From: Marsupella aquatica
Taxonomy: Eukaryota > Plantae > Marchantiophyta
NCBI GenBank assembly: GCA_973895155.1
Contig: OZ316893.1
Location: forward strand, 12,664,359 to 12,728,358
DNA length: 64,000 nucleotides
Direction of reading: 5' to 3'
Shown here: one piece after another, positions 23,071-61,600 of the stretch
How the letters are laid out: each line of letters starts with the position of its first letter
Numbering within the stretch: the stretch's first letter is position 1
The notes under the pieces: generated by a model
What the model saw: only the letters and a program-made list of their open reading frames with translations
Told to the model about the DNA's origin: nothing
Database searches by the model: none
Program-made: the position numbers and the translations under genes

Positions 23071-23154
23071 TGTCGTGAGGATTCTTTGTTTAGTAAGTTC
23101 CTCCTAAGTATAGCTTAGTAGTATAGGATAGTAGTTTAAATTCTCGCGTATGCA

Positions 23155-24671: not shown

Positions 24672-24858
24672 GTTCTCTCTTGACACTAGCAGCCATAGGC
24701 CCGGTGCTTCCTCAAGAACCACATTTTCCCCCCAGACACCGCTGTCTCCTCAAACAATCTACGTCATGCTTGAGTAGCTGGACTGGATCCAAGATAGACT
24801 TGTTCTCTCTTTTTGTCATGCCCATCTCCTCCGCGGCATCCTGGCATGCCTCTTCCAA

Positions 24859-26399: not shown

Positions 26400-26912
26400 C
26401 ATTCCCATCGCACAATATTAACCCCAAGGCGTCGCACTTTTTGAGTCAATTAACTTCAGAACTTCAGATCCAAATATGTCGGGTTTTTGTGATACTTCTA
26501 GGATCGCACTTTCCTAATCGCAACCGTTCACAAACTTCTGAAATCACCGGTATTGCTCTTTGTCATACAATCCCCATCAAAACAATTGAACCAGTATCAA
26601 TCGCAAATATGATGCGATGGTAAATCCGTCTCAAATATTGACGCCCGCGCGGGACGTGTGCGTGTATGTTTGCGAACCTTATGCGACGTATAATGGATCG
26701 CAGAAGTATTGAATATTGCGAACCTCTCAGCTTCTCAGTTTGCCATGATGTTCCGATGCCGTTGCGATGGTCCGCGTGCGAAGTTATTAGGTTCGCAAAG
26801 TGCGAAGGGGGTGCGATGCGCGTATGTTCGCAATAGCCAGAATTATGAAAATCAGGGGCTTGTTAGTTGCGATGAGATTGTCTTCGCAAAACCGGCCGAT
26901 AGTGTTGTAGTG
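26400..26912. mobile_element. Probable orphan CACTA end
   Basis: Ends in GTGTTGTAGTG (reverse complement CACTACAACAC) after dense TCGCA/TGCGA subterminal motifs. No partner end found. Confidence 0.45.
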
Positions 26913-32583: not shown

Positions 32584-32750
32584 ATCATCAGTTATCAGTG
32601 TTTTCCACCAGTCGCCACATCATACCCGATACTTGAGATGCAGGGGCCCTATCTCAGCTGCTCAGCTGAGATTCAGAAATTTCAAGGCAACCAAGCTGAT
32701 AACTGATATCAGTGACTGATATCAGTTATCAGCCACTGATAACTGATGAT
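32584..32750. repeat. Small foldback or MITE-like element
   Basis: 17-bp terminal inverted repeat ATCATCAGTTATCAGTG and an internal perfect 19-bp hairpin at 32695-32733. Confidence 0.65.
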
Positions 32751-35700
32751 CCTTGCTACCCCTTAATTTGCAAAGTGTGGAGTTTGTGAAAGGATTCTTA
32801 GTGACCAATTTTGAGTCTCTAGTTTTGTGAGTGTCCATTCTTTAGACGTTAGGTAAACAATGTTTCTACCCGGGCGATTTGGAAATTTGCTAAAAAATTC
32901 ATGAATTATTATCTTTGTAGACTATGTGGCCATTACATTCAAGTACGTAGCTATACAACCTTTTAATGGTAAAAAAAGTATCCATTTTGAAATAATCTCA
33001 TACTGTTCACTGTACAGCCGCCACCATAACAATTAATACATCTAAAGAGAAAGTTGGTTTTAATGAATCTAGTTGTGATTTATAAAATGGAGTTATGTAC
33101 ATGGGCACGGCAACCTTGAGGTTCATTATGAGCGTGTAACTTGTACCTTGTTGTTGGTGCCACTGTCCATTGCTCACTTTGTGCGCCCCACTCTTGTCAA
33201 TTATTTTATTCAGGGAGACGAGTCCCTGTTTTGTCATTAAATGCATCTTGGTTTTCCCCCACACCTCACCGGAAGACTCTCCTTGTTTTTGTGTCCCACT
33301 TTTTTCAGGCCAGCTTTTTTGGGTCCCCTGGCTGCCCCTGCCCATCCCATGCTTGGGCAGCCCTTAAAACCTTGCCCTTTTTGGTAACCCCTTTATTTCT
33401 ATTTTAAATAATAGGTTCTCTGGCCCGCTCTCTGGTCATTAGTCAGATTTTTCTGACTGTATTTTTTGAAAGTTTGAAACATGGAAATAAAACCCAAGAC
33501 CAAAGAGCCAAATAAGACGAGAGTAGTCACCAATTGCAAGAAGAACTAAACCCTCCCTACAATTTTTTTTTCAGGCAGGAATTCCTCTCAGCATTGAGTG
33601 TGGTTGCATTGAGGCCTCTTTTGTAGGAACAAAATTATCTCAGATTCCAGAAATTAAAGAACTATCTGGTTGAAGGAGAATGTATATGTGACATTTCCAA
33701 AGAACAAAAAATGTCAAACCAGGAAACAGGATACCAAAGGCAAGTGACTCAATAATGGGGTGAAAACATTAGCCTAACCTCTGTAAGATTAAAGAGCCAA
33801 AATAAGCCTGAGTCCAAACAACTGCAAAAATGACTAAAATAACTACAACCCTACAGACAAAATTTTATGGCATGAATCAAAGGATGTCAAAAAGTCTGGT
33901 TTGGTTGAGAAATGGAGTTGAGAAAAGACAAAGAAAGGAATTTCACGGCAGAAACTAAACGATCACAAAAAGTGCCAGCGTGCAAAATACTTGATGGGTC
34001 CCCTCTAGGTAAAGATAATCGTGACTAGCCCCTCACTTTTCAAATGTACTTAATGGGGCCCCTTGTCCCTGCAACCCTTTCTCGTGACCTGTGTGAGTCT
34101 TTTCTGCATTTTTTAATTGTAACATAATCCTACAATTATCTACATCAGTCCACCAAATGTACTCTCTAGAAGCAATTTTAAGTGTACACTTGCTTAAAAT
34201 AAATAGATAACATATGTACAAAGTATTTAGCCCTTGTCACTACCATATTCATTTTTTTCATGTTTTGAAATACTTGTGCAAGGTAAGTACTACTTTAAGG
34301 TACCTAATATGTGCTCTCTTTAGTTATTCCATCTCAAAGTTTTTGGCAGTACTCACACCTGAAAGTATTTCTCCAAAGCATAGTCTTACCTGAACTTTAG
34401 TAAGGCGAGTCAATGGTTTTGGGTACTATTTTTAAAAATTTGTTTTCTGCAAATAAATCACGTGTGATTTAAACAATTCTTTGATGCTATTTTGCCAAAA
34501 AAAAAGGAGTCCAACGTTAGTATTTCCTAAACACACCAAGTTCTTTTTGTGAAAGTTTCTTTTGTGTCACTTTGAGTAAACATAGAGACGTGAATTGTGA
34601 TATGATTTTGATAGCTAATTTTGTGGTTGTTTCACCAACATTGAGCTCAAATTTTAAGGTCATATAACTGCTTTTACATTTGTTACTATGTGCATCCTAA
34701 TGCTCATTTTTATGAATTCAATTGATGCCTTGTGAATTCAACCCTAAACTATTTCCCTAGTAGCGACAAGTTTCTTTTAATTCCCTGGAAAATTTTCAGA
34801 AGGACGAGAACTTTTTTTATGTGATTGAACCTTTTCATTAAAGTAGTTAAACTATTTTATTCAGATTTGATTCTAGATATTAAATTATGTTCTAAAAATG
34901 ATTTCCTTGAGATATCAAGAAAGTTCAGAATATAATCAATCAAATGTGCCCCAATGTTAGTTAAATACTTTCAAAAACTTAAATTTGAGAAAAACTTTGC
35001 CCACCCGTGCTTCCTCAACAAGTCAATCATATTTGTTCCCTTTCTAATCTGAAAATAACACTGCAAGCATATTGTGCCAACCATATGCATCTTTAGTTCC
35101 CTACTCACCCTACAACTCAATTAAAACCAGAGGATAAAGATTGGGTACAAGTGGAAATTTCTATCCCGGTGGGAAATTATTGTAGTCATCATTGGTGAAT
35201 GGAATTTGGACCTCTTCCACCATAGGATTGACGTGACCCAGGATTGTTGATCATCCACCAAGAACATACTGGGTTCTTACTTCCATATTGGACTTCCCAG
35301 TTACTTTTCCTCTAAGGGCCAGTCACAAAGGACACATCACTTTCACATAGAAGAAAAGTGTAATCAAACAAAAGCATAACCACTCTCATTATTAAATAAA
35401 ATTAAATCAAAGTTGCACCTGCTTTCTATATAAAATATATTCTGGTAGTCCTTACTCTCACCAATAACCAATACGTGGGTCCAGGTATTCAGGACCAGTT
35501 TAATTTGGTTTCATATGAACTTAATTAACTAACAAAATTCTTGCAACGTCCTCCGGGTTATGACATTGATATCCACTAATGTCGGGTGGTTGGGTTTGGG
35601 TTTGATGGTGATGTTCTTTAATTAACATAAGGTAACCAAAACTAAGGAACCTTGTAAACTAAGCCTTTCATGGTTATGTTCCTTATGGTTATCTTACAAA

Positions 35701-36019
35701 ATAATTTAAAACAAAAACACAGACACAAAATCTCAATAGGACAAATTAAGTAACTTCAGTAGGCTCCCAAACAAGGTAGCCATACCCATTGAGATTTCTT
35801 ATATGTGTTTTTATTTCTAGGCTTTCAAGTGTACGTATCAGGAGTGCAATTCATTTCAACCCAACCTGAGGAGGGAGATGAGCCGCCAACAAAATCAGCG
35901 GCCAACATTTGTCACACACTAAAGTTATTGAACCTGATGATACACCCTCAAACTTGGTCGAACACTCCTTTGAATCCTTGCAAGAGAGAAGTCGAAATAG
36001 ACTTGGCAAGCAGCAGAAG

Positions 36020-37404
36020 TCGAAGCTGGTAAGGAGGCAGGAGGACCACCTCGGAGCATCCGATTTTTCATTTCTCACTGAAATCTCCGTTCATGCTGTA
36101 ACTTTACCAGGACATTGTCTACTACTTGAGGTACGTGCTGGCCGAGTTTGGTCCCATTCCGCTTAGGGAATGTGGCTCCAAAAATTCCACGCTCCCTGCT
36201 TCCATCTCTTCAACATTGCTTCCCTTATTGAACGATTGATTTCTGAGTACTTCAAAGCAGTGATGTTCAACAGCTACGACTCCTGTGATATTGTCATCTT
36301 GTTAGGGACATGGCTGAGAGAACACAATGTAGCTAGACTCGTTTGTAGGTCTAGCAAGTACGAGCTAATCAAAGTAGTGGCAAAGGAGAGGATTCGAAGG
36401 TGGCTTGGGAGGCAGGAGGACCACCTGGGAGCATCCGATTTTTCATTTCTCACTGAAATCTCCGTTCATGCTGTTATTTTGCCAGGACATTGTCTACTAC
36501 TTGAGGTACGTGCTGGCCGAGTTTGGTCCCATTCCGCCCAGGGAATGTGGCTCCAGAAATTCCACGCTCCCGACTTCCATCTCTTCAACATTGCTTCCCT
36601 TATTGAACGATTGATTTATGAGTACTTCAAAGTAGTAATGTTCAACAGCTACGACTCCTGTGATACTGTCATCTTGTTAGGGACATGGCTGAGAGAACAC
36701 AATGTAGCTAGACTCGTTTGCAGGTCTAGCAAGTACGAGATGATCGAAGTAGTGGCAAAGGAGAGGATTCGAAGGTGGCCTGGGAGGCAGGAGGACCGCC
36801 TCTGAGCATCCAATTTTTCATTTCTCACTAAAATCTCCATTCATGCTGTAACTTTACCAGGACATTGTCTACTACTTGAGGTACATGCTGGCCGAGTTTG
36901 GTCCCATTCCGCCTAGGGAATGTGGCTCCAGAAATTCCACACTCCCTGCTTCCATCTCTTAAATGTTACTTCCCTTACAGAACGATTGATTTCTGAGTAC
37001 TTCAAAGCAGTGACGTTCAACAGTTGCGACTCTTGTGACACCACCATCTTGTTAGGGAAGTAGCTAAGAGAACACAATGTAGTTGGACTTGTTTGCAGAG
37101 TACAAGCTGATTGAGATAGTGGCAAAGGAGAGGAGTCGAAGGTAGCTTGGGAGGCAGGAGGACCTCCTCGGAGCATCTGATTTTTCATTTCTCACTGAAA
37201 TCTCCGTTCATGCTGTAACTTTGGCAGGACATTGTCTACTACTTGAGGTACGTGCTGGCCGAGTTTGGTCCCATGCCGCCTAGGATTATGGCTCCAGAAA
37301 TTCCACGCTCCCTGTCTATCTCTTCAACATTGCTTCCCTTACTGAACAATTGATTTCTAAGTACTTCAAAGTAGTGATGTTCAATAGCTACGACTCCTGT
37401 GATA
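36020..37404 (+). repeat. About 375-bp satellite, right part (about 3.7 copies)
   Basis: GGAGGCAGGAGGACC at about 36033, 36408, 36783 and 37149. Confidence 0.92.
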
Positions 37405-42857: not shown

Positions 42858-44291
42858 GCGGGATGACCATTCCAGGTCCAATAACTAAGGTGGGTCTAGC
42901 AAGTGTGCAACACATTAGCAACGGGGAAGGTTTAGAGTATAGACATGATTAGACAGAGAGGTCATCCGTTGAAGACAAATGCCAAATATAGTTATCGGCA
43001 TTATCTTATCGGATCGACCCCACTTAGCGTATATAGAATCTTAGGATAGGACACGCCATTTTGTGATCTGACAATTAGAGAAACCTAGGATAGGTTAGAC
43101 TTGGCGTTGTGACCGTTCATGGCCATAGCCCTTAGAAAATATTTAGTGCACCCCCTCGTAGAGGCAATGGGATTTTAGGTTTAGAATCGGGTATCCACAG
43201 AATGTGCGAGAGTCCCGGCCAGTCGCGGAACTCGACTACCTTAACACTTAGCTCCGGCGTCGCTGACTCCGACGCCGAGCTCCCTTATGGTCCAGGCCCA
43301 AATAGGCCATCCCAGGAGGACTCAGCATGGGGAGACTTGTGAGCGACGAGACGTGTCGCTAGCGAAGGCAAGGAGCCAAGCTGGTGACACCACTAGTAGA
43401 AACCGGGGGGTATTTAGACCCCATTAAACGACTATTCAATACCGTATAGGACTTGGAAACGACTGGGAAGGACTCTAGTCCTTTATAGGACTGCGAGTCG
43501 TATGTTTTGTTACTATAATCAACTGAGTCCTTTATAGAACTGGTTTATAAGTCGTTTAATAGACTGGATTTTCAGTCTATTTTAGTCTTTGTGTGGGTAG
43601 CTTTGGTGAGTCTTTTTCAGTCTTTTATGGGCTGCGATGGTGAGTCGTTGGGAACAACTCAAAAGGTTATGGAGGGTAGTCTTTAAATATACTTTGTGGG
43701 TTTATAAAATGACTAAAGTAGACACTTTGTGGGGGTTTATAAAACGACTCAAGTAGACACTTTGTGGGGTATGTACAAGTCTTTCATGTCAACTGGAAAT
43801 GAGTGATGAAGACCCCACTATACTACTTGGAATGAACTCACTCTTGTGCACAAATAACACATTTCATTCATGTTTTATTGTGTACTTGGAATGAACTCAC
43901 TCTATAAGGTCACCATTCACCATGTTAACATTAGAACCTCACACAAATTTTCAGAAAGCCATCTTCTATACCATGTACACTAATATGAATTCACAGATTC
44001 AAACATCATAGACTACAAAGAAGGTCACAAAGCATTCGTCTATACCATACACACTAATACTGAATTGATACAAAACAGATTCAAGTATCATAGACAATCA
44101 CCATAGAGCCATAGTTTGACATCAATCACTTGTTTCATACATACAAAATTCAGAAATATCAATGTCACACACAACGGCTCCTTCATCCTCTTTACCAAAT
44201 GGAAAAATTGGTACAGATATTTCTTGGATTTTTCCAAGGCAATGTCAAAATGTAACACAATTCACATGATTCTATCTACACTTGTATTCAG

Positions 44292-47200
44292 TCACTGCAG
44301 ACTAACACACTCTGATGGCCAGAGCACAAGAGATCCTACTGCATCTGCAATTATTTCTTGAGGTGGATCATCGTCTCTATTCGGAAATGGCAAATTACAA
44401 TCAGATACAATCACTGTAGTCAACAACACTACTACATGGTCATCCGGGACCACTTTGCCATGGAATTTAGCATGATCCGGTCGCAAAATGCCTGTACCCA
44501 CACATACCTGCGAGTCATTCTCCCATGATAGAAGATTATGGACTGGCTCTGCTGTGGCTATCACCTCCACCTTACCCTGGCTGTTTTTCTTGGCTTTCCT
44601 GGGTGGCTTATACATGACATTATTCATACCTTGGTTGCGAGTCATGACTTTGGCACGAGTGTTTTGTGCTGGTGATCGAGAATTGGCTACACTCTTCTTC
44701 AAAGAATCTGCATCCATATTTGACACTTCCGATTGTGTAGCAGGATTTCCCTGCGACATCATCTCAGTATCTGCTAACATTGTACTTGCTTCAATTGAAG
44801 CATCTACAATCTTACTTGCATCCAATGTTGCTCCCAAGTTTCGACGTCGCTTCACCCTGCTCCCACTTGGTTGAGAGTCTGTCAACTCTGCATCAACTAC
44901 AATTCAATGCATTGTCCAACATAAGTGAATCACTCATCACATGTGCGCCATGTACATGTCACCATCCACAAAGTTGTCACTATCTCCTTACCATTATGAA
45001 CAGCCTTCTTCCCCTTCTTTGCCATTGCCATATCCTCCATGTCTGCTTCTGCTGATCAATAAACAGACCACAAGATTCAGGTTCAATCTATTAACCACTG
45101 AATTGTTTCTCAACAATGGTAGGAGAGGAATTTAAAGCATCAGCTTACCTGATACCTCCTTGGCTATGGTCACTGAGGCACTGGGCACATCTTTTTCATT
45201 GCTCTTTGAATCACCTGATACATCAATCATGATGTCACTTCAATTCCCAGTTTATCCAACCAATTCTTACAGAAAAGATTACCTCCAACCGGCTTAAGCT
45301 TCACAAAACTCCATGCACTTTTCAAATGTAATGTACTGGATCATAGCAGGTTACCTGTCTCAGCAACCTTTTTGCCATTCTGCTTACCGATTACAGGGTC
45401 CAGGTTCTCTGCCTCCACTCTTCCTGCATTCAAACCATTCACTCAATTCATGAAAACTTACTTCTAACATTTGAACATAGGACACAATGAACAATGGGCC
45501 TCTCTTGTTTCAAAATCCTCATTGCATACCTGTGTCAGATTTGCCAATTCCCTTTTTTGTTAACAAGGGCACACTTTGTACAATGTTGCCCTCATTGTTT
45601 GGTTGGGAACCACCCAATTTTTCAATCACAAGCTTGAAATTAGATTCCACTGATGCAAGAAGGTTCGCTACAGATGCCTCCACAATATCCAAACGATCAG
45701 CCAATTTACTTTCCACTCGAGGGAGTCCACACTCTAATGACTTCAACCGTTCAGACATCTTTGTGAGAGTTGTAACAGTTCCCTGTCATAACACAGTTTA
45801 CATATCTCAGATAATTGTCCCCAAGAACTGGTTGCTTACTTCCTACTACAATTCTTTCTGATGCTCAAGGCCAAATAGTCACAGAACATATAGAATTACA
45901 ACATAATCACCTGTTTGGAAGTCACACTTGTCACCTCACTCCTTTGTTTCATGAACTCCTCTCTCACTTCTTGTGCTGATGGTTCTTCACCTGTCAATTT
46001 CTTCTGCAGTCCACATCAACATACATATGAATGAAACCAAGTGTTGATTGTCAATGAAAATGTAATAATGGTAGCAAGATGATAAGTTTGAGGCTTACTA
46101 TTAGGCATGTCACTGCCTTACCAATTGTTCTTTCACTGGAGCATAACTTCCTCTCCCAGCCTGTGAAAGGTGTTTCACTTTGCCTCGAGCATTTGACATC
46201 AGTTCACTCTTGCTCTGTCCAGCCTCCGACATGAACCCTTTGATTAACCGTGTCCATTGATCCAGTTCCAATGATGGGGGTGGTGGCATTCTCCTGTTAG
46301 AACCATTGTCTATCCACATCCTTTTCAACCTATGCCTCTCTTGTTTCAAAATCCTCATTGCATAATCTGATATGCAATCTTCAACTGGGCCCTTACCATC
46401 ATTACCAACATAGTCCCACCGTTCAAGAATGTCCTTGCAGATAGCAGCCCAATCAGCTTTGTTCTGACTCCTAAACTCTGTAATGCTCAAATCTAACCAA
46501 CGCAATACTTCTCCTCTTAGGTCAGAATGCCAACGGTTCTTACCATCACATGTGGGAGTTATCCAACCTTCGGAATTCACTTCTACTTTACCAAATTTGT
46601 TACTGTCTCCTGCCTTGGTACTCCCTGAAGCGCTACTAGGTGTCCCTCCACGGCCTGGTGTCCCCCCACGGCCTGGGGTCCCTCCACGGCCTGATCTCCC
46701 CCCACGGCCTGGATTGCATTGTCCAAACCTCCCTGGAGTCCCTGCACATTTACAGGATCCATTTACAGTCACTTACATTAGGTAAGTATGAATCATAAAT
46801 CCTGCTGCCAAATATACACTGGACTTCAGAGCAATTCTGCAATGACCAAGTTACCTCTCCCTTGGCGCATAGATGGTTCTGGACCACCTGTCCTATTGCT
46901 TTGTCTTGATGAATTAGGGCCGTTTCTCCCGCCTGTGAATGATTGCCGCCTATCTGAACGTGGATGGCCTTTGTTGTTTTCGTGATTGTCCCAATCAGAG
47001 TCTGCATACCAACAGGTACATGCCACACTCATGGACCTGTAAGATAAACTCTTTGCCCTAGCTACACATCAGATAAGTCCATATTGAGCTAAATCTCTAC
47101 TACCATCACAAAATCACTAGCATAAGGCACTTACTTGTCCAATCATCCTCCTCACCTGTCCATTGCCCTCTGTACCCGTCTCTACCACGCTCTGGGTGTT

Positions 47201-47477
47201 CATATTCATCCCATCCATCTTCTGCTCCATCATAGTCATCATCATAATTATCAGGCGTCCCTTGCCAATAACTCTGGCTCCTTCTAGGGTATGGATTATG
47301 TGATTTCTCTCTAGCTGCCCACCTACCTGGGACTTGATGAGGGCCCTGTGCATCCTGCACAGGTGCATTTTTCTGTGAGCCCCCTGCATCTGGGTCTCCA
47401 TCCATATCCAATCTTTCCTCTTCACCCCACTCTCCAAGCCCCATGTCTGTCTCCATGTCATCACCCTCTTCCCCCAT
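44292..47477 (-). CDS. Multi-exon TnpA-like (Ptta/En-Spm) protein
   Basis: Lies downstream of TnpD. Exon ORFs 47477-47130, 46772-46120 (QWTRLIKGFMSEAGQSKSELMSNARGKVKHLSQAGRGSY), 45758-45519 and 44885-44292 (FHGKVVPDDHVVV...GSLVLWP). Exon structure is approximate. Confidence 0.65.
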
Positions 47478-47654
47478 AGCTTCTGCACAGCACCCACAAC
47501 CAAACAGGGAGAATCAGCACACTAAATTCAAAGTATCAATCAATTTCATGCATATCCAACTATCCTAAACATCATTCCAGGCAGCAATTCCCGTTCTGTG
47601 ACTCTGTGCAGGTAGTCATCCTCAACCTCATACTTGCCAATCGCCAGCTGTTGC

Positions 47655-50600
47655 CTATTGCAAATCATTAACCTCATCATATTCCATTTGCCCAGGTTCA
47701 TCATATGTCTCTCTCAATGTTAAGGGGATGTAGTCAGTCCCTGCCCGAGTTGGAAGTACAGTCTCATGACTAGGATGCTCGAATGCAGCATGGTCATCCA
47801 AACTGAACTCTACTTTACTTCCATCCATCCGCCTGTTCCGTGCTTGGCTATGGCATACCACCCTCCAGCCATGTGACTCCTCCACATCTGCAAAGAAAGC
47901 CTGTTCAACTTGGCTAGGGAAAACAAAAGGCTCAGACCATTATGGTACTCTGGACCTAAAATTGGCCAACAAGAACCCATCATGATCACGCTTCATGGTG
48001 GCCCTTGGTCTCTGCCACTCTGATTTCACCCATGATCCCTTCATCAATATCACTGGGACACTTGTGTTACCATAATTCAACACCCAAATGTCGGTCAACT
48101 CCCCCACGTAACCCATCTTCATCCACCCCCTCTGTTCTTCAGAGGTTCTCTGCTCAAACACAGAAATCAAACCACAATCATATGATACACAATGGTCACC
48201 CTGCTCATCCCTCACTCGATAATGATTTCCATAAGCTCTCATCCGTTTGTAGGTCAGAATAGACAATCGTGGTGGCACAGATAGAAGATACAAATCCTTC
48301 TCCATATCTGGGTGATGTCTACTATGCTCTCGAATTGTCACCCGAATCCACTGCTCGAACTGTGGGAAGGGATCCTGCTGCCCAGAGTGTGCAGCTTTTT
48401 GCATATCATATTCCCTGCAATATGAGGTACAGGCATAGTTAGGTCTAAACAACACATGACAACCTAAGATCACCCTTGGAACAGACAAGAAGCATCACAA
48501 CAAAGGCAAGTCAATTCAATCACTCACCTCCACCATGGTTGCATAGGCTCTGTGTTTGCCAGCACATATGAATGAGCCTTGTCTCGAATCGCAACAGGCA
48601 GCTGAACAGCACGTCCCACACCTTCAACAACCTCGCCACTCACTCCATCATCTTCACCAGATTTCCAAACTCTTGTCATAGCTTCACCAGACCCAGCCAT
48701 GTACTCTGTTAGGAATCCCAACGTCTCATCCTTAATGTACCCCAATGCCATGGAAGCCTCTGGCCTGTAGTATGTTCTCACATGACCTTTCAACAACTTC
48801 ATGTATCGCTCCATAGGGTACATCCATCTGGTACTGACTGGCCCATACTGCCCTAGCTCTTCTACCACATGGATTAGGAGATGAGTCATAACATCAAAGA
48901 AAGCAGGGGGGAAGTATATCTCCAAGTCACAGAGGACATAAGCAGCATCCTGCTTCAACTGCTCCAATCCTTGGGGATCCCACACTTTCACACATATACG
49001 GCGAAATACATTGCACAGTCGAAGAATGACATTACGGACTGGTTTCTGCATGAGACCTCTGAGGCATAGGGGCAGAATGTGCTGCATCAACACATGGTAG
49101 TCATGTGTTTTCATACTGCCAAGTTTATTCTTTGTAATATGCTTCTTGAAGGCACCAGCATAGCCAGAGGGCACTTTCAGACAGCTCAATCTATACAAGA
49201 ATGTCTTCCATTCATCCTGTGTGCACACATAGGGAGCTTGGAACTTGAGAAGTACATTGGGATTGCTTGCATGGGGCTTCAACCAAAGGTGAGGGCGAAT
49301 CCCCTTCTGTTGCATATCAGCTCGAACTGCTCCTGTATCTTTCTCACCCGACAAGAACTTCAGCAAGCTCTCACAAATATTTTTCTCAATGTGCATGACG
49401 TCCACATTGTGTTTGCTGGGCTCGAATTCCTGCACTCCACAAAGCAAAGAATTCAACAACAGAAACACTAATTAACCACATAGGAGGATTGTAACCAACA
49501 TCAATCCACCATTGCTCCAATCTAAAATTGCAATCATACAGGGGCTGGAGGCTAAGTACATTACCCTCTAGTACTCCAACTCCAAGTCCATCAAGGTCTG
49601 TCTTTTCACACCGTGTTTCACCACTGGATCCTCAGGTTCTCGATCAGTGGCACTTCTCTTGTCCCAATCAGCCTTCCTGGCTGCCCACCTCAGGACTTGC
49701 TCTCTGGTGACCCTCTGTGGTGGGCCACGAAGCTTTGTTTTGTTGTTGAAGTGTGCAATTTGAGACCGTGTGTGCCTGTAAGGATGATCAACAGGCAGAT
49801 ACCTTCTATGCCCCTGAAATTTCATACTGTGCAGGGCATGCGACCACTCACTTGTCACATTTTTCCCACATGGTGTGCACCCCACATAGCCCTTTGTCAC
49901 TCGTCCAGATATGATGCCATGGCCTGGGTAATCTGCTATATCCAGCAAACAAATTGCATGCAGTCTAAAGGGGCTGGGTCGAAGAAGCCCCTTCAGAACA
50001 TCATGGGTTAACACCCCTTCTATCCACAAAGTCTTCCACTCTTCCACTGCTGGAGCCAACATGATATCTATGAATTGCTCGGTCACAGAAGCTGGTCCAG
50101 GGATTAACAGCACCATCATGACAAAAAACCTCTTTGTAGTCATCCATGGGGGAAGGTTGTAATTTAGCAGCGTAACCGGCCAACATGAATAACGGTTGTT
50201 TTTGTCTCCAAATGGGTTTACTCCATCCAGTGATAGACCAAATCGAAAGTTCCGCTTCTCTGCAGCAAACTGTGGCCACCTCTCATCAACAAATTTCCAA
50301 TGGTTGGAATCTCCAATGTGACGCTGCAGGCCATCACTGCTCTTGTTATCAGGAGTCCATGTCATCAGCTTGGAAATGGCAGGGCATCTAAACAGACGTT
50401 GTAGTCTAGGAATGAGAGGAAAATGACGAAGAACCTTGGCAGGGTGTGTACATTTCCCTACATTCTTGTACCTGTGCTTACCACAATGAGGGCATGTCAA
50501 TTTATCTGCATGCTCTTTGCGAAAGAGAACACACCCATCAGGGCATGCGTCAATAGACACATAGTTCAGCCCAAGGTTAGACATCAATTTCCTAGCCTCG

Positions 50601-51355
50601 TACATATTTTTTGGAATTGAATTACCATCTGGTAACACATTTCGGCGCAGGAAGGTCAACAACTCTGTCACAAATATATTGGGAACATTGTGATTGCCAC
50701 AGATGTTCAACAACAACACGACAAAACCCAGCTTGGAGCAGTTCGACCCCTCGTAGATAGGAATGCAAGCTTCTTTGATGTGTTTTGGGCCCCCAAACAC
50801 CCACTCCCTCTCTGCTGCACCTTCCCCAATGTCAAAGTCAGGTTCAGCTTGGCCGTCGCCAATGTGTGGCTGCGGTTCATTGTCCTCTTCTGATTCCACT
50901 GTGTCGTAAAAAGCATCAAGGTCTTCAAAAATCTCTTGAACCATTCTTGGGACATCCATCCCACCGTCCTCAGTGACTGCCTCTGCATCTCCATCTTGGT
51001 CATCCACGTTCTCATGTTGGACCCCAGGACCATCCTCTGCACAGTCTATGTCCTGCTCTACGTAGTCTCTACGCCTAGCTGTATTAGAATCCACAAAGTC
51101 AGCTCTCCACTCTTCATCAGAGGAGTCTTCTTCTGCTGGTACATTCCAAACCCTCCACCGAGGGTGCCTTTCATGCCGCAGCAGGTGAAGGTGCACAGTG
51201 TTCAAACTCAATGACTTGAATCCTTGGCACTGTGTGCATGGGCATCTCATCCTCCTACTCCTACCTTGGGCGGCCCGGGCTTGTTCACGCATCCACAATT
51301 TAGAATCATGATGCCTAATCCTAAATGGGTTGTGAAGAGGCAACCTTGGAGCCAT
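47655..51355 (-). pseudogene. tnpD: CACTA TnpD transposase (Transposase_21 / DUF4218 / DUF4216 type)
   Basis: IDACPDGCVLF, LRHFPLIPRLQRLF, LSLDGVNPF, YNLPPW, DVMHIEKNICE, MKTHDYH, RWMYPMERYM. Introns at about 49564-49431 and 48527-48416. Premature stops at 49568 (W to TAG) and 47940. Confidence 0.93.
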
Positions 51356-51681
51356 CACTATACACACGCACTCAGCACCCTGTCATTTTATTATGCAAGT
51401 GAAAAATACACTTCCTGTTAAGGATTTCACCCCCGACTGTACTTGCCAAAATACGTAACGTTCCAAAAAAACAAAAAAACAAAAAATATAGGTGCCTGAG
51501 TCATGTACCTATTCTCAAGTGAATGAGACAAAATTCCTAAATGTTTGAGGATGTCAACTCCTCCGCTGTCCTCACATGTACTGCCTCTGCACGTACATCC
51601 ATGACCATATCAGAGTCCAATCATGTATAGTCATAGACACAGGTGCCAGGTGCGAGACCGGTGTGAGATGTCCTCATCTTA

Positions 51682-52251
51682 CTACCACATCAAATACGGA
51701 TACCAATCTTGTTGTCGATGCCACTCAGCCCTGAGGTACTCAGGCATGTACATTAAGTCATCAAGGTCTAAACCCTGCTCATGCCATGGTGGTCTTCGAT
51801 CCATGCCTACAAGCAGTGGCAGCAGTGCCCTCCATGGTGCACATGTTGCTACCAAGTCCCTCCACTGGGTACTAATTAGTCTATATTTGCAGATATCTTG
51901 TGCGCCAGACACCACAAGAACCCTCGGCCAGACATGTGTAAGAACTATATCATCTGCCAAATCAGACAACAAGGAACCACCTACAGCATCGTGCTTGTCT
52001 AACTCATCTGCTGAAAAGTAAATGTCCTCTTCCGACTGTGCATCCTCATTCACCACAGCATTCACAACACATCCAAGGTCTGCAGGCATTATCTCGGATG
52101 GAGCTACACTCTGTCTGGTTACCAATCCACACAAGTAAGCCCAAGCAGTAGCCATGCACGATGCAACCCGTAGGAGGACCCTACACAGGGCCTGACGGTC
52201 TGGAAGAGGCAGCATACCCACCAAAGTCTTCAGCCAAACAGAGCCCAGCAA
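51682..52251 (-). CDS. F-box-like small protein (CACTA cargo)
   Basis: LLSDLADDIVLTHVWPRV...ICKYRLISTQWRDLV...PW follows the F-box spacing. Confidence 0.55.
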   Translation of the reverse strand: MLGSVWLKTLVGMLPLPDRQALCRVLLRVASCMATAWAYLCGLVTRQSVAPSEIMPADLGCVVNAVVNEDAQSEEDIYFSADELDKHDAVGGSLLSDLADDIVLTHVWPRVLVVSGAQDICKYRLISTQWRDLVATCAPWRALLPLLVGMDRRPPWHEQGLDLDDLMYMPEYLRAEWHRQQDWYPYLMW

Positions 52252-52391
52252 GTAGATTCACAGTCACACCCCACGCAGCAGGAAACAACAATCACTTCAA
52301 CTGCGACCAACCATGACAAGATGAGTTAGTTCAAGGATCACATTTATTACAAAATTGTGATTTATACAAAAATATGAGGGACTCCTACTCC

Positions 52392-53255
52392 TCACTCTCT
52401 CCCACCTTTGCTAAGCATACATCTCCGCTGAATCTTGGAGGGCCAGGCCTCAAAAATATCAAAGTCCCAAGCATTCTGTCGCTTCCCTCTAGCTGCTGAT
52501 TCCAGAAGCCAATCAGGGGAAAGCACCCAAAGATTGTTGTTCATGACAAAATCACGCACTGTTGTCTTAAAGAATTTTCTGCATATTTTCATGTATGACA
52601 GACCTACAACATGAGTGGAGGTTTCTGTTAGACTCTCCTCCACTGTCCCACCTAGCTCAACAACTATAGACTTGTACAGTCTGCACTTAGTCTCCCCAAT
52701 TCCTTCTTCTGCAAATACCACACTGAACCCCTTCATAATGGTATTTCTCTCCTTGCCATGCTCATTCAATATAGCATCTGCACGCATAGGATGGTGTCCT
52801 ATGTTGACAACAGGTCCATATTGGACAGAAGCAAAGTTGGGTTTCTCTGCCGCTGCTTCATAGGCTTCCTTTTCAGCCAAAGCCTCTGCAGTGGCCTCCT
52901 CACTCTCCCACAACTCATATTGCTCAGTACTCTGTACACACCTATGTTTAACAGAATCGGTCAGCCAAGAGACTTCAACTACTTTTAGACCTTGGTTGGT
53001 AATGGCAGAATCAATGAAGGACCATGACCACTTGTTCATCACATCCAGCCATGTCCCCGCAACAACATGTGTAGTCTGTGGAGTGATGTCCTTGACTTCA
53101 GTCCCATGGAACTCTGAGAATCGTTTTTGTACGATTGGCCAACTCACTTGGGTGAACCCATAGTGGCCAGGAATCAAAATGGCTTTGATTCCAGCCAACA
53201 GAGGCGGGTGGTCAACATTTGTACGTTTCCTAGAGGCCATGTACACACGGGCCAC
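52392..53255 (-). CDS. Tandem BRCT-domain protein (CACTA cargo)
   Basis: Two repeats: ITPQTTHVVAG...VVEVSWLTDSV and LGGTVEESLTETSTHVVG...VLSPDWLLESA. Intact and intronless. Confidence 0.8.
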   Translation of the reverse strand: MARVYMASRKRTNVDHPPLLAGIKAILIPGHYGFTQVSWPIVQKRFSEFHGTEVKDITPQTTHVVAGTWLDVMNKWSWSFIDSAITNQGLKVVEVSWLTDSVKHRCVQSTEQYELWESEEATAEALAEKEAYEAAAEKPNFASVQYGPVVNIGHHPMRADAILNEHGKERNTIMKGFSVVFAEEGIGETKCRLYKSIVVELGGTVEESLTETSTHVVGLSYMKICRKFFKTTVRDFVMNNNLWVLSPDWLLESAARGKRQNAWDFDIFEAWPSKIQRRCMLSKGGRE

Positions 53256-53840
53256 CTAATCACTGCAGACCGGAAGATAATGCGTTCACCTGATAATCGG
53301 AGGGCCCTTAAAATGCTGCGTTTATAACTTGGTCCAGTCCAGTCGTCTGGTGAGTCTCTGCTCCGATTCCAAACGGGAGAAATATTGGGACAAACGTACT
53401 AGACACCTGCAAGCATGCACTTCATAGTTTGAATATGTGCCTTCACAATATTGAAGGTGACAAGTGCAATTGTTTTGTGATGCCACATACAGATGTTTCG
53501 TATGGGGGCAGACATTCAATGAGAATACAAAATGTTGGTACACTTTAAGGGAATTCTCGCAAATTAAATAGCCTTGTAACTTATATGCTCATAATGAGAA
53601 GTCCTGATTTAATTTAAGCAGTGTCATGTAAGTCGTGATCAAAATGATTGCAGAGTTAAAAAAGTTCCTAGAAGGCTTAAGGGGAGATTTTGAAGGCATG
53701 TACCCAGGAACAAGTAATGAACTTAGGGTACTTGTTGCCTAAGCATCCTCTCCTACAGAGGTCCTTCTTCTCAAAATTGGAATGTCTGCAATCTCCAAGG
53801 TATCCACATCAGGTGCACTATGCATGTACATTATTCAGGT

Positions 53841-54521
53841 TCAAAGCCAAGAAATGTGATCTCTCATGGGAGTGTGCAAAGTAGGATCTATGGCATGGCG
53901 ATGACAATAGAAGATCCATCGATCAACACCATGTGCAGAGTGATCATAGATGTGTCTGTCACAAGCATAGCCTTCTGCTTGACGCTCCTTCAAACAATGA
54001 AAGTGCCACATGGTGGGACACCTAACACAGTGGACTATGTCCACCCAGAAATCTTCATCGTGCTGACCACATGCCTTGCACTTATGAAGTGGGCAAGCTG
54101 TGGCAAGATCGGGCAAACATGAAAAACAAAAGAACCTCACACAATATCTGTCAGGGCATTTCCTAACAAGTGGTGGAGCATCAATAGAGCCCTCATAAGA
54201 CCCCAACTTCCCACACTGTGCACACTTAGCCTGCTTCTCCAAACAATCAGTGCACATCCAGCCTCCTTGGTGTGCTGACGGGAGGCCCACCCCTGGACAG
54301 TTGTTTTCTGCAGCAAGGTCAGACTCCGGGTTGAGGTGGAAATGCCTCATGCAAGGGCCCTCACATATGGCTAAGTCACCACCATCGTCACAAATGGCAC
54401 AACAATGAGCCGCCTTCTGGAAAATCTGACTTGCGGAGAAGTTACTACCATCTGGCCCAACTACACCTGTGTTGCTCACCTCTGTCCCCCGCTTCTTGGC
54501 TCGGATTTTAGGGCGTGCCAT
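53841..54521 (-). CDS. Stand-alone EDM2-like PHD-finger cassette (CACTA cargo), intact
   Basis: CAICDDGGDLAICEGPCMRHFH...CPLHKC...CVRCPTMWH...YCHRHAIDPTLHTPMRDH with an N-terminal basic NLS-like tract. Confidence 0.88.
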   Translation of the reverse strand: MARPKIRAKKRGTEVSNTGVVGPDGSNFSASQIFQKAAHCCAICDDGGDLAICEGPCMRHFHLNPESDLAAENNCPGVGLPSAHQGGWMCTDCLEKQAKCAQCGKLGSYEGSIDAPPLVRKCPDRYCVRFFCFSCLPDLATACPLHKCKACGQHDEDFWVDIVHCVRCPTMWHFHCLKERQAEGYACDRHIYDHSAHGVDRWIFYCHRHAIDPTLHTPMRDHISWL

Positions 54522-55190
54522 GCCTACGCATGAGACAGATAGTACAATTTAGCAGAGTGCACAGACAATACAATTTAGTGCAGTGTACAAAAAGTACAGT
54601 GTAGCATATAGACTAGAGTGGCAATTGCTACTGCAATGAAATGTTCACACACATGTGCAGAGTAGACATACTTTTTGGTTTGTTGAGCCCACACTAAAAA
54701 CTGATCCCCTCGTACAATAGCTCCACCTACACCTCAATTTTGTGGCTATGATTCACCAAAGGAGATCTGCAACAAGATTTAATGCATTTGAATCACATAT
54801 AACAGTCGTGACATGTAAAACAGGCATTTTTTGAACAGGATTGGTATCAAGCAGTGTGATCAGGGTTGTAATTTATACATCCTAAATAGGCTATGATAGT
54901 GAATGAGACAAATAAGTTAGGCATAAATCACTTTTTCCAAGTTATCACATGGCCCATTAATTCCAGTCTTTGAAAGGAGACTTTTAAGTGAGCTTGCTAG
55001 CCTCTTAAATTAGGATATTGTACTTAGTGCAGCCATAATAGGATAAGTTATGTACTGTTGACCCTAAACCCTGGACCCAAAATTGGTCATAATTCAAAAT
55101 CTTAAGTAAATATCCTCTCTGTTCAAGTCAAAGTGTTAAGTTATAGGTCAATGGTCTCTGGTTTGTGCATGCGGTGTGACAAGTGGTCCT

Positions 55191-55640
55191 CTAGAGCGTG
55201 TGATCCAAACATGTGTAGACACCAAAGTGACCGGTGGTGGGGTCTGGGAGGGCAGGACAAGTGACATTGCCAGGCACACTGCAGGATGGCGAGTGGTTCC
55301 AGATGATACATTGTGCTCTGTGAAAAAACCGACATCCAAGAGAACGGTCATCCAACTCTAGGCCAGAAGCCCTACAGGCAGGACAGTCATATTGGCAACT
55401 GTGCACACACCCTTGGGCCCTAATTTGTGGCGGGTCATGTACAAGAGACAGAAATACCAAGGATGTTGGGAAGGGTGGAGAAGCAGGTACAGGCCGACTG
55501 TAGTTGTTCCTGGCAACAACTGGGTACTCAAAGTACCATGCAGACTGGGCTGGAAGGATCCCAAGTCTGACATACTCAAGGCGCAACATCTCTGCCTTGC
55601 GTGCAAGCCGCACATGTTCAGCGTTGCGGGTCCTCACCAT
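55191..55640 (-). CDS. Hypothetical CACTA cargo ORF
   Basis: ATG-started 149-aa ORF on the same strand as the other cargo genes; no recognised motif. Confidence 0.3.
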   Translation of the reverse strand: MVRTRNAEHVRLARKAEMLRLEYVRLGILPAQSAWYFEYPVVARNNYSRPVPASPPFPTSLVFLSLVHDPPQIRAQGCVHSCQYDCPACRASGLELDDRSLGCRFFHRAQCIIWNHSPSCSVPGNVTCPALPDPTTGHFGVYTCLDHTL

Positions 55641-58600
55641 AAGTGTTGCTTTTGTGGAGATGTCATGTGTTCACGTCCTCTGATAAGCACCTTCGATCAG
55701 CAAGGTGAGCAGGAGCTGTACTTGCCTCACCAACAGCAACCAACCTTAAATTATCAGTTCCCACTCACTGTGTCATTCCATTGGTTCCAGCTAGGGGTCA
55801 CAGTGTAAACATAGCATGAAACACTCCTAATCAACTTGCTTACAAACTACAATATCCAGAAAGAGTGAAAGTCTCACCCTCCAGTGAGCAGCAGAGAGGT
55901 AGTTCACTAGATGTGTTGATGTGCAGTTAAACCTCCACTATTGCTTACTTCTGGTGTATGCTGCTCAGAAGAAGACATATTAGTAGCAGCAAATTGCAAA
56001 TAATGGCCATAAGCAAACCGTGAGAGTTTGCAGAATGCTACGACAAATCCATCACAGCAGTGCTCCACAGGAATGAAACCAAGCAAAATTTGGTGACCTC
56101 GGCCAATGACAAGGCCAATGTAGTGAACAATCCTTGACCGATCAGGATATGGATTGGAATTACAATTAGTCAGCTCTTCTTCTTTGTTTTCTAACTCTGG
56201 GGGAAATGAGCATGACCAGGGAATTCTCTGAGAAATAGAAGTGCACAGGGAAAATGAAATTGGCTCATTCAGCTCTGCAAGATGGACCATTGCAGCATAC
56301 TTGGACAGTTGTTCCGCAATACATAAAATACCCTGACTTACATGCAATTGATACAATCTGCTTCTGTTGGCTGTCCTACAGCTCATGGCAGTGCCGTTGG
56401 GACAGGGTAAGTGAATATTGCCATAGCTGAAGCACATTGAGCTTGCAGCAACAAGTGAAGGAGCATGGCCAAAAGCAGAAAAGACAGACAGGTTTTACAA
56501 GAAGAAACTAACAACCGCCAATCTGCTCAAATCCGCTGCATAGATCAAACCCTCCGAACTACACAGCCCTCCTTTGAAAACAATCCAATGTGCTTTGGCT
56601 GGTGGATGACAAGGACTGGGAGAAGAGGAAACGTCTGCACAATCAATCCAAATGACGGTACACAGAGACCAGGCACAGAGAGGATTTGTGCTTAGACAAA
56701 AACCACAAATTGTAGCATGGGCGCCATAGCATTCTAGACAAAGCACAAAACATAGAATCTATGAATCTATGACTCATGGACTAACAAAATGATTGGGTAG
56801 CATGGCAAAAGGAAAGACAAATTTCAAAATGACAACATGGCCCGTTTCCACCATTCATTTGACGTTGCTAGGTGTCCGTAAGATGACTGACCCACAAACA
56901 ATCCCGACAACCTCATCCGACAGACTGCTTTTCTAGTGTGAAGAAATACATGATTACAAGCAACACCACGCCTCATCCAAGCAGGGAATTGAAAACATAA
57001 CCATGTCATTCCTATATTGGACAGTGTCCTCTGCCATTGCACTGCATAGTTGTTATTCCATGTTGGTTGTCAACAGTTTGTTGGCTTGCCACAACCTAGA
57101 TAGAACAATAAAATATTGTACATGAATACAACAAGAAAAATCTGCATACAGCGATGGCCCGGTCACTTGAGGAAAAAACAAAACTAAGAAGGCAGGCACA
57201 CGGGCAACCGAGAAAAAAAGCTAGTGGCGCCTCGCGGAGAATCCAGAATGGTAATGCCCTCGCCCAGAAGCTTGGGAAACAAAAGAGAAAAAAGCAAAAA
57301 CGAGCTACCGACCACCGTCTTGACCAGGCCTGCCACAAGGTATGGCTGGAGGCTGTGGTCCCCCCCTCAGTAAAGAAAAGGATGCAGGTTGGAGCACGGG
57401 GCACAAGGCATGTTTGGATCCAGGAGGAGCAAAACAGTAATGTCAAGCAGGAAGTGTGGAGAGACCAATCAGTAAACAAAAATAGGGGAGAACAAACATA
57501 CATCAGCAGCAACAGGAAACGAGAAAGTTGATTTAGGAGGGATTGTAGGGAGAGAGCTTTTGGTGGGCTCGGCTGTGCGTGAAATATCGGGAGATAGATG
57601 CGCGAGAGAGTGAGGAGGGTGGCAAGCGGAAGACGGGTTGGGACTGGACCCTTGGTGCCGGTGGGTAATATATGGGGTTTCAGCAGACTTGGGGCCAGTT
57701 TGAGGAGGATTGAGAAGCGCGCACCCCACGTTCTTGGGTGGTGGTTGGGTGGGGTTTTGTTTGATTGAAGAAGAAATCACCATTCTCTTCTAGAAGAAAG
57801 AAAATCACAGGAAATAGTGGACGGGAGAACAAGGCATGTAATAGAGAACAACAAGGCATGTAATAGAGACAGTGCGCAGCTCAGCTCCGAGGTCACACTT
57901 TACGATGCACAGGGGGTCCTTGGTTGCACGTAGGAGAAGGACTGAATCACTGTGGCTGCTCTTCTCTACTATCGAAGCACCCGGCTGGCAGCTCCGCAAA
58001 CACTGATCGTAGCTACAATCTCTACACCGTTGATTGAAGAGCAGCTGCAGCACAGTAAGGAGCTCCCACAGCCTCCCTCTTCAAAGCTCGGTTGACCTAG
58101 CTCTACGATCGACGGAGCATGGGCGCCAGACAAAGCACAAACTGTACCATGGAGCTGGAGAAAAACACAGAGTAATTGAAGCCTAACAATACCCTTCTCA
58201 GCTCCTGATTGAATGAGGAAAAACACATTACAAGACACATTGCAGGCAATAGGATTTTAACAATGAAGTCTCGCCTGTGCTGACAGAATACCTGCTTACA
58301 GCCACGCGTTGCTCATCCTCCCACAGTTCGGTGGCACACTATCCAGATGGCATGACGCATGCCTTAACTTATGACGATTTGCGCAGCTCAAATCAAGTAG
58401 GTTGTCCCCACAAAAAGACAGAGGACAACAAAGAAAAGCAATGTAGCCGTGATGTCTTACCAGCCCTGACAATGGGAGCTTCAAAGGCGGTGCACTATGG
58501 CTGAAATGGCAGCACGCTGCTCGAACACTAAAGCAACACAAAACTTGGACTCTCACCTTATGCAACTCCTGGCTTGTATTCAGCTGGCGTTGGCCCACTC

Positions 58601-61600
58601 TAAGCTCCTGCGCCGCTCCGACTGCCAGTCGTTCTGTAGACGGTCTGTATCCTCCCTGACTGCAGCTCCTCCCCGCCCCCAGCTCGTCACCCGCGTCTTC
58701 TCCCCAATTTGTGGTGAGCTCCTCCTCGACCACAGCACCCTAAACTGCTTTGCCCAGCCTCTGATGGCCTTCACGTTGTTACCGATTGTCGCTCCCCACA
58801 AAGTCCACAATCCATAAACCAGGCAGATAGTGCGCCCGTAGAACAGATGCAACCCGCATGCAGCTTCACCAGCTCAATGGCAGCTCAACAGCTTAAGGGT
58901 GCAGCAAAAGGGCGTTGAATAGGTTGTCTCACCTCACCCTTCGAGAGCCGGTCATTGCAGCATCCCTAAACTCCCGATCCCTCTTCTCGGATTCCACAGA
59001 GCCGACCACAAGAAAATGGGAACACTAAACCTCACTGTAGAGACGTTCCCACCAAGATTACACGGAAAACCTTGCTCCGATCCCTAAGCTCCCAATCCCA
59101 TCGAGAGAACACGATAAAACCTTGCTCCAATCCCTAAACTCCCGATCCCACCAAGAGAACACAATAAACCTTGCTCCGCAAGTTGGGAATGTGGCGGGAT
59201 CCCTAAACACATCAACAACCTGCTAAGTGTAAGCAAAGTTGCATAACCGGCTTGTTCCCTTCCAACGGTCGCGCGACTCGGGTGTCCAAACGGTACTGCA
59301 AGCGGTACAGGCCCCTAGCTTGGGATACCCTTACCAAAGTCACTGGTGTTGCCGACATGGTAACGGCAAGATTATCCTGACCCTCCATAAACCCCCTCCA
59401 TTCACTCAAGTGTTGTGAGTGACAACTTAGTGTAGTGTCGCTAAACAAATACTTTGGCCTTAGCAAATATCTGTGGTGATCGAACTTCATTAAACCAAAC
59501 CTCTTTTGGTCACAAATAAGGCCATTTAATGAGTGATGCCCCTTGTCATCACCCTCTTAATTTATGCAATTACCCCTCCTGAACACAATTGAACATTGTC
59601 CAAATTGCCTACCCTCATGAATAATTTGTCAATTATCTTTCCCGACATATATGATGTCAATGGACATGATGGGGAACATGATGTCAATGGACATGATGCC
59701 AACGATCCAATGGTTCCTAAACCCCCATCCCCTTAACATGCAACCCCCGACCCTTGACATCAAACCCCCCTAAACCCCCTTTAGTGAAAACCCAGCCACC
59801 CCCTAGCCTTGACATATAAACCCCCTAAACGTCTTCACAACTCGACTGTGGCCAGACTATCTTTGCAATGCCAAGGGCCATTTTTAGAGTGCATGCCGCT
59901 TGCAAGCTCAGGCTCTCAAGATCCTCCCAAGGCAGCAAACAAGTTAGGGTCCCTAAACATGTTCCTTTACCCTAAACCATTGCGTCACTATTTCAATCGA
60001 GTGTTCTTTGCCTGGACAACCCCCTAACCCTAAACCCACACCCCCTTGAGACCGGTACAAATCTACCTTTGTGCATCTTGGCCTTTTATTGATGGAGTTA
60101 GTAATCGATCCCTCCGTAGTCCACCCTCCATGAACCTCACTCCAAAACCTTTTTTGTCACAAATAAGGCCATTTATTGAGTTATGCCCCTTGCTATCTCC
60201 CTCTTTACAGAATTACCCCTCCTCAACATAAGTGAACATTACCCATGATGTGCTAGACTATTCACCGTTCACAAAGTAGCAAGGTTACTTCTCATAGTCT
60301 TTTAGTGAACCATAAAACACTAATAGTCTTTTGTAGTCTTCAACAAAACTGGTGCAATGGGTGCGAGTCGTTTCAAGTATGGAAAAAGGACTTAGTGGGC
60401 TTAGTCCTATAAGGTATGGTCTAAATTGCCCCGGTTTCTACTAGTGCACACACTAAGGACTTGGGCTAGCTGAGAGCTGGTTGGGTCAAGTGGATATGGG
60501 CCGGGCTCAAGGACGACCATCCGGACCTCTAGATGGACCTTGAGTTATGAGGGCTTGAGGGTGAGCTCCTCTTGGGCCCAAGGCCCATGGAGTTGACGCC
60601 ATGGGCAACGGACGCTTGGGGCGCAAGTTACGGCCCGATCCGGGTTGGGCCGATCGGGGGCCCCGAGCGGCGATGAGACCTGAGGGCCTAGGCATGATCA
60701 CTGGTTTGGCCCGATCACAACGGGCTAAGGCACTCCGCTTGCAGATGCCTAACGAGAAAGTTATGGGCGTTGCTAGTTGGTGGCGCGCCCATTATGCGCG
60801 ATACAATCCGGGTTGGGGGCCAAATGTTTAGGGACCAAAGCTGGTCCAGGGGTGACAGGTCTCCAGAAGCATATATGAGGGGAGTGGTGTCTCCCTAGGG
60901 GCTAAGGGCGAGCCAAAGTCGTGAGCCGCGACGGTTGCGACACTAAGGGAAACTGTCAAACGGAAATGACGATATCTTCCCAACGGGAAATCCGTTGGAG
61001 GACTTATTGGGTGTGTTAGAAAGCTCTTGAGAAGGCCTACGCCCTCCTGAGCTCAGATAGGTCTGGGGGCACCTTGGGTTCTTGGGGTTTGCGGGTGTTA
61101 ACTCGTTCGCTTGCCAAATCCTGCCGAACAGCAGCCAAGTCGCATTCAGTCTCCCAAGGGAGCTTGCGTAGGGGAGGCAAGGCCAAGTAGGTATGGAGGT
61201 TGAGTTCCAAAAGTACTCGGTCCCTAGACCATCAGTGGGGCGAACCGGGAGTTGGTCGTTTGTGTCGGGACCATTCTGGTTCGGGCATGTTGGGACAAGC
61301 TTGGGACAAGCTTTAGGACAAGCTACGCTATTTGGGCCATGAGCATGTCCTGAGGTCAGGGTGGTCAGTTGGTGATGGATAGGTACGAGGGGGAACCCGG
61401 GCCACACCCAAGGAAGGAGTTGTTCTAGACGGACAGTGGACGTGGGTTTTGGTTCCAGCTTATGGCATCGGGAGGATCTATCTAGATCCCGAAGGGTTAC
61501 TTACCGAGGTGCTTGGTTGCTTGTGCAGACAGTGAGGCCGTTGAGTAGCGGTCGTGTAGGTGAGCAAGTGCGGCTTCGTATGGGAGTGGCCGCTGGTGAT

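Follow-up and report, generated by a model that had tools for sequence, protein, structure and literature searches.

The window, by which we mean the whole 64,000-nucleotide stretch of Marsupella aquatica DNA analysed here, contains two genes for a small PHD protein, copies A and B, both on the minus strand. Copy A (53841-54521) is an intact, stand-alone ORF of 226 codons in which an NSD/EDM2-type PHD1, a PHD2 and a variant PHD are followed by an EDM2-type tail. The Pfam profiles PHD-1st_NSD, PHD_NSD and PHDvar_NSD match it in this order, each below its curated cut-off, and Pfam returned no methyltransferase-like (ELP) or DNMT1-RFD match in copy A. Alignment of copy A with EDM2-like proteins and with the members of its own family brings 24 zinc-ligand positions into register. 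After the last finger, both window copies carry the tail motif YC..H ... TP..H, and the frame of copy A ends three residues past the tail His. In the AlphaFold model of copy A, the second and third fingers are predicted with confidence (mean pLDDT 75.5). The best solved relatives are the PHD arrays of NSD2 and NSD3 (PDB 29hg, 7crp, 7cro and 9gbf; profile E 1e-12 to 5e-11), although the fold comparison with these arrays is weak (Z 4.8, rmsd 2.6, 75 aligned), and a Foldseek search with the PHD model returned only weak PZP and NSD PHD matches (best E 2e-4, TM about 0.2-0.3).

Transposon surroundings of the two copies

Copy A lies inside a fully bounded CACTA (EnSpm) element of 17,056 bp (43391-60446, minus strand). 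The ends of this element are perfect 18-bp terminal inverted repeats beginning CACTA (43391-43408 and 60429-60446), bounded by a 3-bp CAC target duplication. On the minus strand, copy A is followed in turn by a twin-BRCT ORF, an F-box-like ORF, a Transposase_21 + DUF4218 gene and a Transposase_24 exon. The second passenger, directly downstream of copy A (52392-53240, minus), encodes a 282-aa protein with two BRCT stretches (E 6e-14) and gave no PDB sequence match; the third (51682-52215, minus) is an ORF of 177 aa whose F-box match is weak (E 0.094). The TnpD-type transposase exons (48524-51355, minus; Transposase_21 E 7.8e-59, DUF4218 E 2.2e-27) are interrupted by a single in-frame stop (49568-49570) directly ahead of an intron, and a likely TnpA-type exon (46110-46772, minus) has a weak Transposase_24 match (E 0.014). 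Unlike the transposase with its stop, copy A and the BRCT ORF are open, as is the F-box-like ORF. At the 5' end of the element, positions 55191-56437 hold minus-strand frames of 149 and 176 aa together with a 123-aa plus-strand frame that has a weak FYVE match (E 0.006).

An acceptor-like YAG stands 2 nt before the ATG of copy A, and the start of the CACTA transposase has an acceptor-like site at the same distance, against a background of 14 among the 462 minus-strand ATGs in the element. These sites make a spliced leader likely, so that the term intronless, applied to both copies in the sequence-only reading, holds for the coding part only.

A tblastn search with copy A found copy B as the sole other copy in the window (17434-18108, 68% identity, E 5e-103). 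Its first nine codons (19958-19984, minus), which end in one copy of a target duplication, are separated from the remaining 219 codons and the stop, themselves an open frame (17431-18090, minus), by a MITE-like non-coding inverted-repeat element of 1,861 bp (18097-19957, strand not assigned) that interrupts the gene at codon 9/10. The insert has terminal repeats alike at 22 of 24 positions and internal 72-bp repeats, and is flanked by a 6-bp target duplication (19958-19963 and 18091-18096); an 8-bp duplication with a single mismatch would fit as well. Translation of copy B from its ATG meets a stop after 35 codons; because the insert breaks the frame, the copy in the window is dead. The sequence-only reading had aligned 17431-19984 with copy A from end to end. 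That span of 2,554 bp is not a contiguous ORF, but the alignment is recovered once the insert is removed, which leaves 228 codons that align over their full length with copy A at 69% identity. A reading of the insert as an intron was rejected, since GT...AG splicing places a stop in frame. In all four runs, which come from two studies, one of them possibly the source of the window itself, a contig whose shorter arm is 23-44 letters joins 18089 to 19957 and skips 1,867 bases, indicating that uninterrupted versions of copy B exist. A YAG before the ATG is absent from copy B in the window, and the runs show two changes, at 19987 and 19989, that create one. The insert is further marked by high contig depth and, besides the 72-bp repeats, by many palindromic CGATAAATTTATCG motifs, and it is free of CpG depletion (observed/expected 1.15, compared with 0.25-0.58 in the genes tested).

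Copy B, a TET/JBP-like gene and a transposase gene are arranged on one strand within 7 kb. The transposase gene, a spliced HTH + rva_4 integrase-type (DDE) gene (12991-14850, minus), lies downstream of the TET-like gene, with copy B 2.6 kb upstream of it; its rva_4 matches are above the cut-off (E 1e-16 and 3e-8), and D, D and E motifs can be read from its exons. We take rva_4 to be a marker of IS3EU elements. The TET/JBP-like dioxygenase gene (15184-16371, minus), directly downstream of copy B and missed by the sequence-only reading, is recognised from its Atlas features and consists of a single 395-codon frame broken by two in-frame stops. An HxD and a distal His are visible in its last 205 aa, which scored 0.97 against the Atlas with 25 of 30 matches in Tet_JBP clusters; the 2-oxoglutarate-binding Arg of the TET/JBP consensus is not evident in the frame. 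Sequence searches of Pfam, PHROGs and PDB gave no match to the frame, none was found in phages, and its single-sequence fold reached a pLDDT of 34. The name is drawn from one Atlas search and the visible motif. That a plant genome should have a broken TET/JBP-like gene next to an rve transposase is notable in its own right.

IS3EU termini are described as TAYGG...CCRTA, with repeats over 30 bp and a 6-bp duplication (PMC12730594, available in part). Searches for TAYGG/CCRTA pairs, short blastn and repeat searches returned nothing above chance as ends of the rve element. Later insertions and an inversion have overwritten both sides of the candidate element; to the left it runs into a high-depth repeat near 11900, and to the right into a 375-bp tandem repeat upstream of copy B (20139-20937), which continues reversed at 36004-37402 across the inversion. 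Because the ends were not found, we infer the membership of copy B, which likely rides an rve element. Of the two unrelated transposon contexts named in the sequence-only reading, that of copy A is delimited at both ends, and no ends were found for that of copy B. A Gypsy element is also split here, with LTRs at 42857-41246 (minus) and 23071-24738 (plus) that have TG...CA ends and share a CCGC flank, and with its pol broken between about 37400 and 20940. This split points to a 16.5-kb inversion or misassembly (window 20934-37400) that also cuts the 375-bp tandem repeat.

Contig depth, which is not a copy number and was used for flatness only, stays level between 13109 and 17118 in each of the four runs (60-100 in one of them), compared with about 1,400-2,000 on the insert in copy B. 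The TET-like gene, the spacer and the 3' end of the PHD gene are covered by contigs that are 85-90% alike, no one of which links all three; they hint that further elements of the PHD/TET-like/rve kind may exist. Downstream of the rve gene, 12307-13108 is a high-depth stretch within an otherwise low-depth region, for which no ends were found. Two minus-strand frames of 94 and 220 aa, separated by one stop, adjoin at 29129-30082 and have no Pfam match.

Age, selection and extent of the PHD family

All 22 Cys of copy A are retained in copy B, as the conservation noted from the sequence alone had indicated, and the suggestion that the gene is kept under selection is borne out by the ratio of nonsynonymous to synonymous change. 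A counting method gives dN 0.225 and dS 1.9, a ratio of 0.12 with a bootstrap upper bound of 0.21, and a codon model over the 217 uninterrupted codons gives dN/dS 0.084, with a value of 1 rejected (LRT 127.7, p 1e-29). The dS between the copies is 1.9-2.4, i.e. about 2; synonymous sites are therefore near saturation, placing the split between A and B long before the present insertions. A recent swap between the two elements is rejected by the same values. The 500-bp flanks on either side of the copies score like shuffles (35 and 16 of 200 shuffles reach the score), and the similarity of A and B is thus limited to the coding part, with the exception of the 150 bp upstream, which are slightly more alike than chance (3 of 200 shuffles reach the score). 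The case for exchange between transposon superfamilies is weaker than the sequence-only reading had it: it comes from a single window, dS is close to saturation, and the searches gave no ends for the second element.

Thirty-one short database relatives were assigned to the family, 19 by placement in a tree and the others by profile match or resemblance. Sixteen of them are full length (206-245 aa), and the 18 full-length members, including copies A and B, have pairwise identities of 30-91% (median 42%). Across these 18, zinc ligands are kept in 426 of 432 cells, compared with 1625 majority matches in the 2988 cells of other columns. H39 (16/18), W172 (18/18) and H194 (17/18) are near-invariant and new relative to EDM2, and the proteins start at a similar distance from the first Cys, often with M-A-R. 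In a careful tree, for which 28 of 79 rows had been dropped as short, long-branched or redundant, the family forms one clade (100/100); all 21 of its rows had also come together in the first tree. It holds at least three deep subgroups, and no annotated proteome names any of them, although the host lineage may simply lack such a proteome. Of the 31 relatives, 22 could be traced to a source, 21 of them to Logan or JGI contigs and one to NCBI/ENA, and none of the 22 bears a descriptive name. Among 1,080 longer candidates, Selaginella EDM2 is the sole fused or longer form, evidence that is weak by the tool's own note. A search for the relatives' loci in metagenome contigs yielded 93 pattern matches, none of them confirmed, a second scan of such contigs yielded one locus with only 19 residues matched, which was not used, and none were found in viral contigs. 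Judged from these comparisons, the family is old and under purifying selection.

Relation to EDM2 and NSD proteins

In a whole-library search, the best named matches after the family itself are EDM2 and EDM2-like plant proteins. The 20 matches that were looked up are EDM2 or EDM2-like proteins of seed plants, a fern, a lycophyte, liverworts and green algae, many of them with a DNMT1-RFD. Copy A shares with EDM2 both the PHD1-PHD2-variant PHD array and the C-terminal tail motif. This motif is present in 39 of the 53 EDM2-like rows, in none of the five NSD-like rows and in 9 of the 21 family rows, most of the 12 family rows that miss it being cut short or frameshifted. Its distribution upholds the EDM2-like identity given in the sequence-only reading and speaks against an NSD-type module. 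The NSD2/NSD3 arrays, in contrast, occur with SET or PWWP domains, which copy A lacks.

In line with this, the family and the EDM2-like rows are split together from the five NSD-like rows at 100/96 (P0126 and P0133, first labelled NSD-like, fell inside EDM2 in the tree and were counted as EDM2-like). The family lies on the EDM2 side of the NSD-like outgroup, but a position nested in the seed-plant EDM2 clade is rejected (AU p 0.007). The best tree places the family outside the EDM2-like rows (95/77) on a long stem of 1.96; neither a grouping with all streptophyte EDM2-like rows (p 0.19) nor one with a liverwort clade (p 0.43) is rejected. Seven further short EDM2-PHD proteins (P0028, P0042, P0078, P0037, P0061, P0063 and P0064; 270-390 aa) fall inside the EDM2-like group and apart from the family, so EDM2 has given rise to reader-only derivatives on more than one occasion.

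The family also departs from EDM2 in several respects. EDM2 has 700-1800 aa compared with the 226 aa of copy A, which is without the DNMT1-RFD and the methyltransferase-like domain, both found in host EDM2-like proteins. In PHD2, the family has Cys where EDM2 has His, and a loop of 7 residues between ligands where EDM2 has 10-36. An acidic residue precedes the first PHD Cys in all 47 pattern-matched EDM2-like rows (51 examined) but in none of the 18 family members, where the residue two positions ahead of that Cys is His or Gln. As this acidic residue is a predicted H3K4 contact, its loss would weaken reading of the H3 tail through PHD1. For EDM2 itself, binding to chromatin marked with H3K9me2 and suppression of proximal polyadenylation are documented (PMC7529245, PMC4980392 and PMC3632883, each available in part). 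On sequence alone, this H3K9me2 specificity would not be transferable to the family protein; H3K9me2 reading by the family appears doubtful, and the mark or partner that it binds probably differs from that of EDM2.

A possible chromatin adaptor and competing explanations

We give an even chance to the reading in which the family protein is a transposon-encoded chromatin adaptor that favours the expression of its own element. The reading draws on the long conservation of the family as a reader-only protein, on the place of the gene upstream of the transposase in both contexts, and on the TET-like neighbour, since for its counterparts in fungi a role against silencing and movement between superfamilies have been proposed. 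As a plausible course of events, the module would have split long ago from an EDM2-like host gene, losing the DNMT1-RFD and methyltransferase-like parts, and would have been resident on DNA transposons since that split. Well before the insertions seen today, passive transfer at the DNA level would have carried it between a CACTA lineage and an rve (IS3-like) lineage. The protein would be made from a spliced transcript, its gene lying upstream of the transposase, and this small, mostly basic-tailed zinc protein may then bind silenced chromatin or its proteins and displace or recruit host factors, with the TET-like oxidase of the second element acting on the DNA mark. Weighing against the adaptor are the dead state of copy B, the two stops in the TET-like gene, the one stop in the CACTA transposase, the failure to find ends for the rve element and the loss of the acidic residue, and the genomic context of the family is known from this one window.

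An adaptor could instead serve targeting, tethering the transposition complex to a chromatin state and steering insertion to safe heterochromatic sites, with no role in escape from silencing. A reader-only protein without a catalytic part would suit this purpose, both elements lie in a transposon-dense stretch, and there is a precedent in the captured methyl-CpG reader of arthropod Copia elements, which biases insertion (PMC6673714, available in part). However, one adaptor would have to suit two unrelated transposases (Transposase_21 and rva_4), and the putative DNA-base oxidase next to copy B points to mark removal. We regard targeting as rather unlikely.

The dN/dS of two old paralogs (dS about 2) cannot place where selection acted, and it would be compatible with a small gene family under selection in the host that was picked up twice, in the manner of Pack-CACTA elements, and is useless to its carriers; the other host-like modules in the CACTA element (BRCT and F-box-like) fit such passive capture. 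Against it stand the complete single-exon ORFs, where fragments might be looked for, the intact state of copy A beside a transposase with a stop, the deep subgroups (at least three) that no annotated proteome names, and the search of 1,080 candidates, weak by the tool's own note, in which host EDM2 was the only longer or fused form. Capture of this kind seems to us unlikely. A Pack-CACTA gene fragment in the strict sense, fragmentary and neutrally decaying, is rejected by the complete ORF, the dN/dS of 0.08 and the conserved family.

The protein might also act as EDM2 itself does, a specific form of the idea in the sequence-only reading that it promotes transcription through H3K9me2 chromatin: by holding back early polyadenylation there, it would let the whole of the downstream transposase gene be transcribed. 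In both contexts the transposase is encoded downstream of the PHD gene and on its strand, and the acceptor-like sites 2 nt before the ATGs of copy A and the CACTA transposase (background 14/462) suggest alternative splicing from one leader; suppression of proximal poly(A) sites on H3K9me2 chromatin is an established activity of EDM2 (PMC7529245, available in part). The family protein, however, is without the DNMT1-RFD and methyltransferase-like parts, its PHD2 is shortened (7 residues vs 10-36) and the acidic residue is lost, which makes this mimicry quite unlikely in our estimate. Finally, it is very improbable that the ORF, instead of standing alone, forms the terminal exon of a longer transposon protein made by splicing: the acceptor-like site 2 nt before the ATG would let an upstream exon read in frame, and the database relatives are gene calls on short contigs, but throughout the family the start is about equally far from the first Cys and often reads M-A-R, and the 1,080 longer candidates include no fused form.

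That transposons carry and swap epigenetic accessory genes is already known. TET/JBP genes have passed between 11 fungal transposon lineages, including EnSpm and IS3EU, and are proposed to counter silencing there (Kojima 2025, PMC12730594, available in part). As in the fungal elements, an epigenetic accessory gene would here be common to unrelated superfamilies, and here too a TET-like gene lies beside an IS3-like integrase; the hosts differ, however, and the shared gene is an oxidase in fungi and a reader in this plant. The adaptor would likewise resemble other transposon-encoded factors that act on or read host chromatin, namely the VANC anti-silencing proteins of VANDAL/MuDR and the SET genes of oomycete HarbingerS/MuDR (both as cited in the available part of PMC12730594), and the MBD of certain Copia elements, whose carrier, in contrast, is a retrotransposon (PMC6673714, likewise partial). 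In the available portions of this literature, none of them is described as a single PHD gene that stands alone and occurs on two superfamilies of DNA transposon. The word PHD is absent from the main text of PMC12730594, and the parts available of PMC13317346, 10.1101/2024.09.22.614159 and PMC13519894 make no mention of an EDM2-type PHD gene on transposons. More broadly, no transposon-borne gene of this type was found in the literature searched, and Repbase and the supplements of PMC12730594 could hold such elements. To our knowledge, VANC proteins are not PHD-based.

Few transposon-encoded counter-silencing factors are known from plants. A compact and conserved EDM2-type reader on unrelated transposons offers a direct test of whether elements exploit the heterochromatin read-through machinery of the host, and copy A, as a small natural protein, lends itself to finding out the ligands of EDM2/NSD-type PHD arrays. 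Through the pairing of this reader with a TET-like gene, the sharing of epigenetic cargo seen in fungi would be extended to plants. More tentatively, plant DNA transposons of at least two superfamilies might share an ancient, interchangeable anti-silencing kit, in which an EDM2-derived reader-only protein with a rewired histone-binding face is paired in one lineage with a TET-like oxidase (reader and eraser) and, in a different one, with BRCT and F-box modules (reader and degrader). If this were true, it would constitute a second anti-silencing system of plants, independent of VANC, and the first to employ a heterochromatin reader hijacked from the host.
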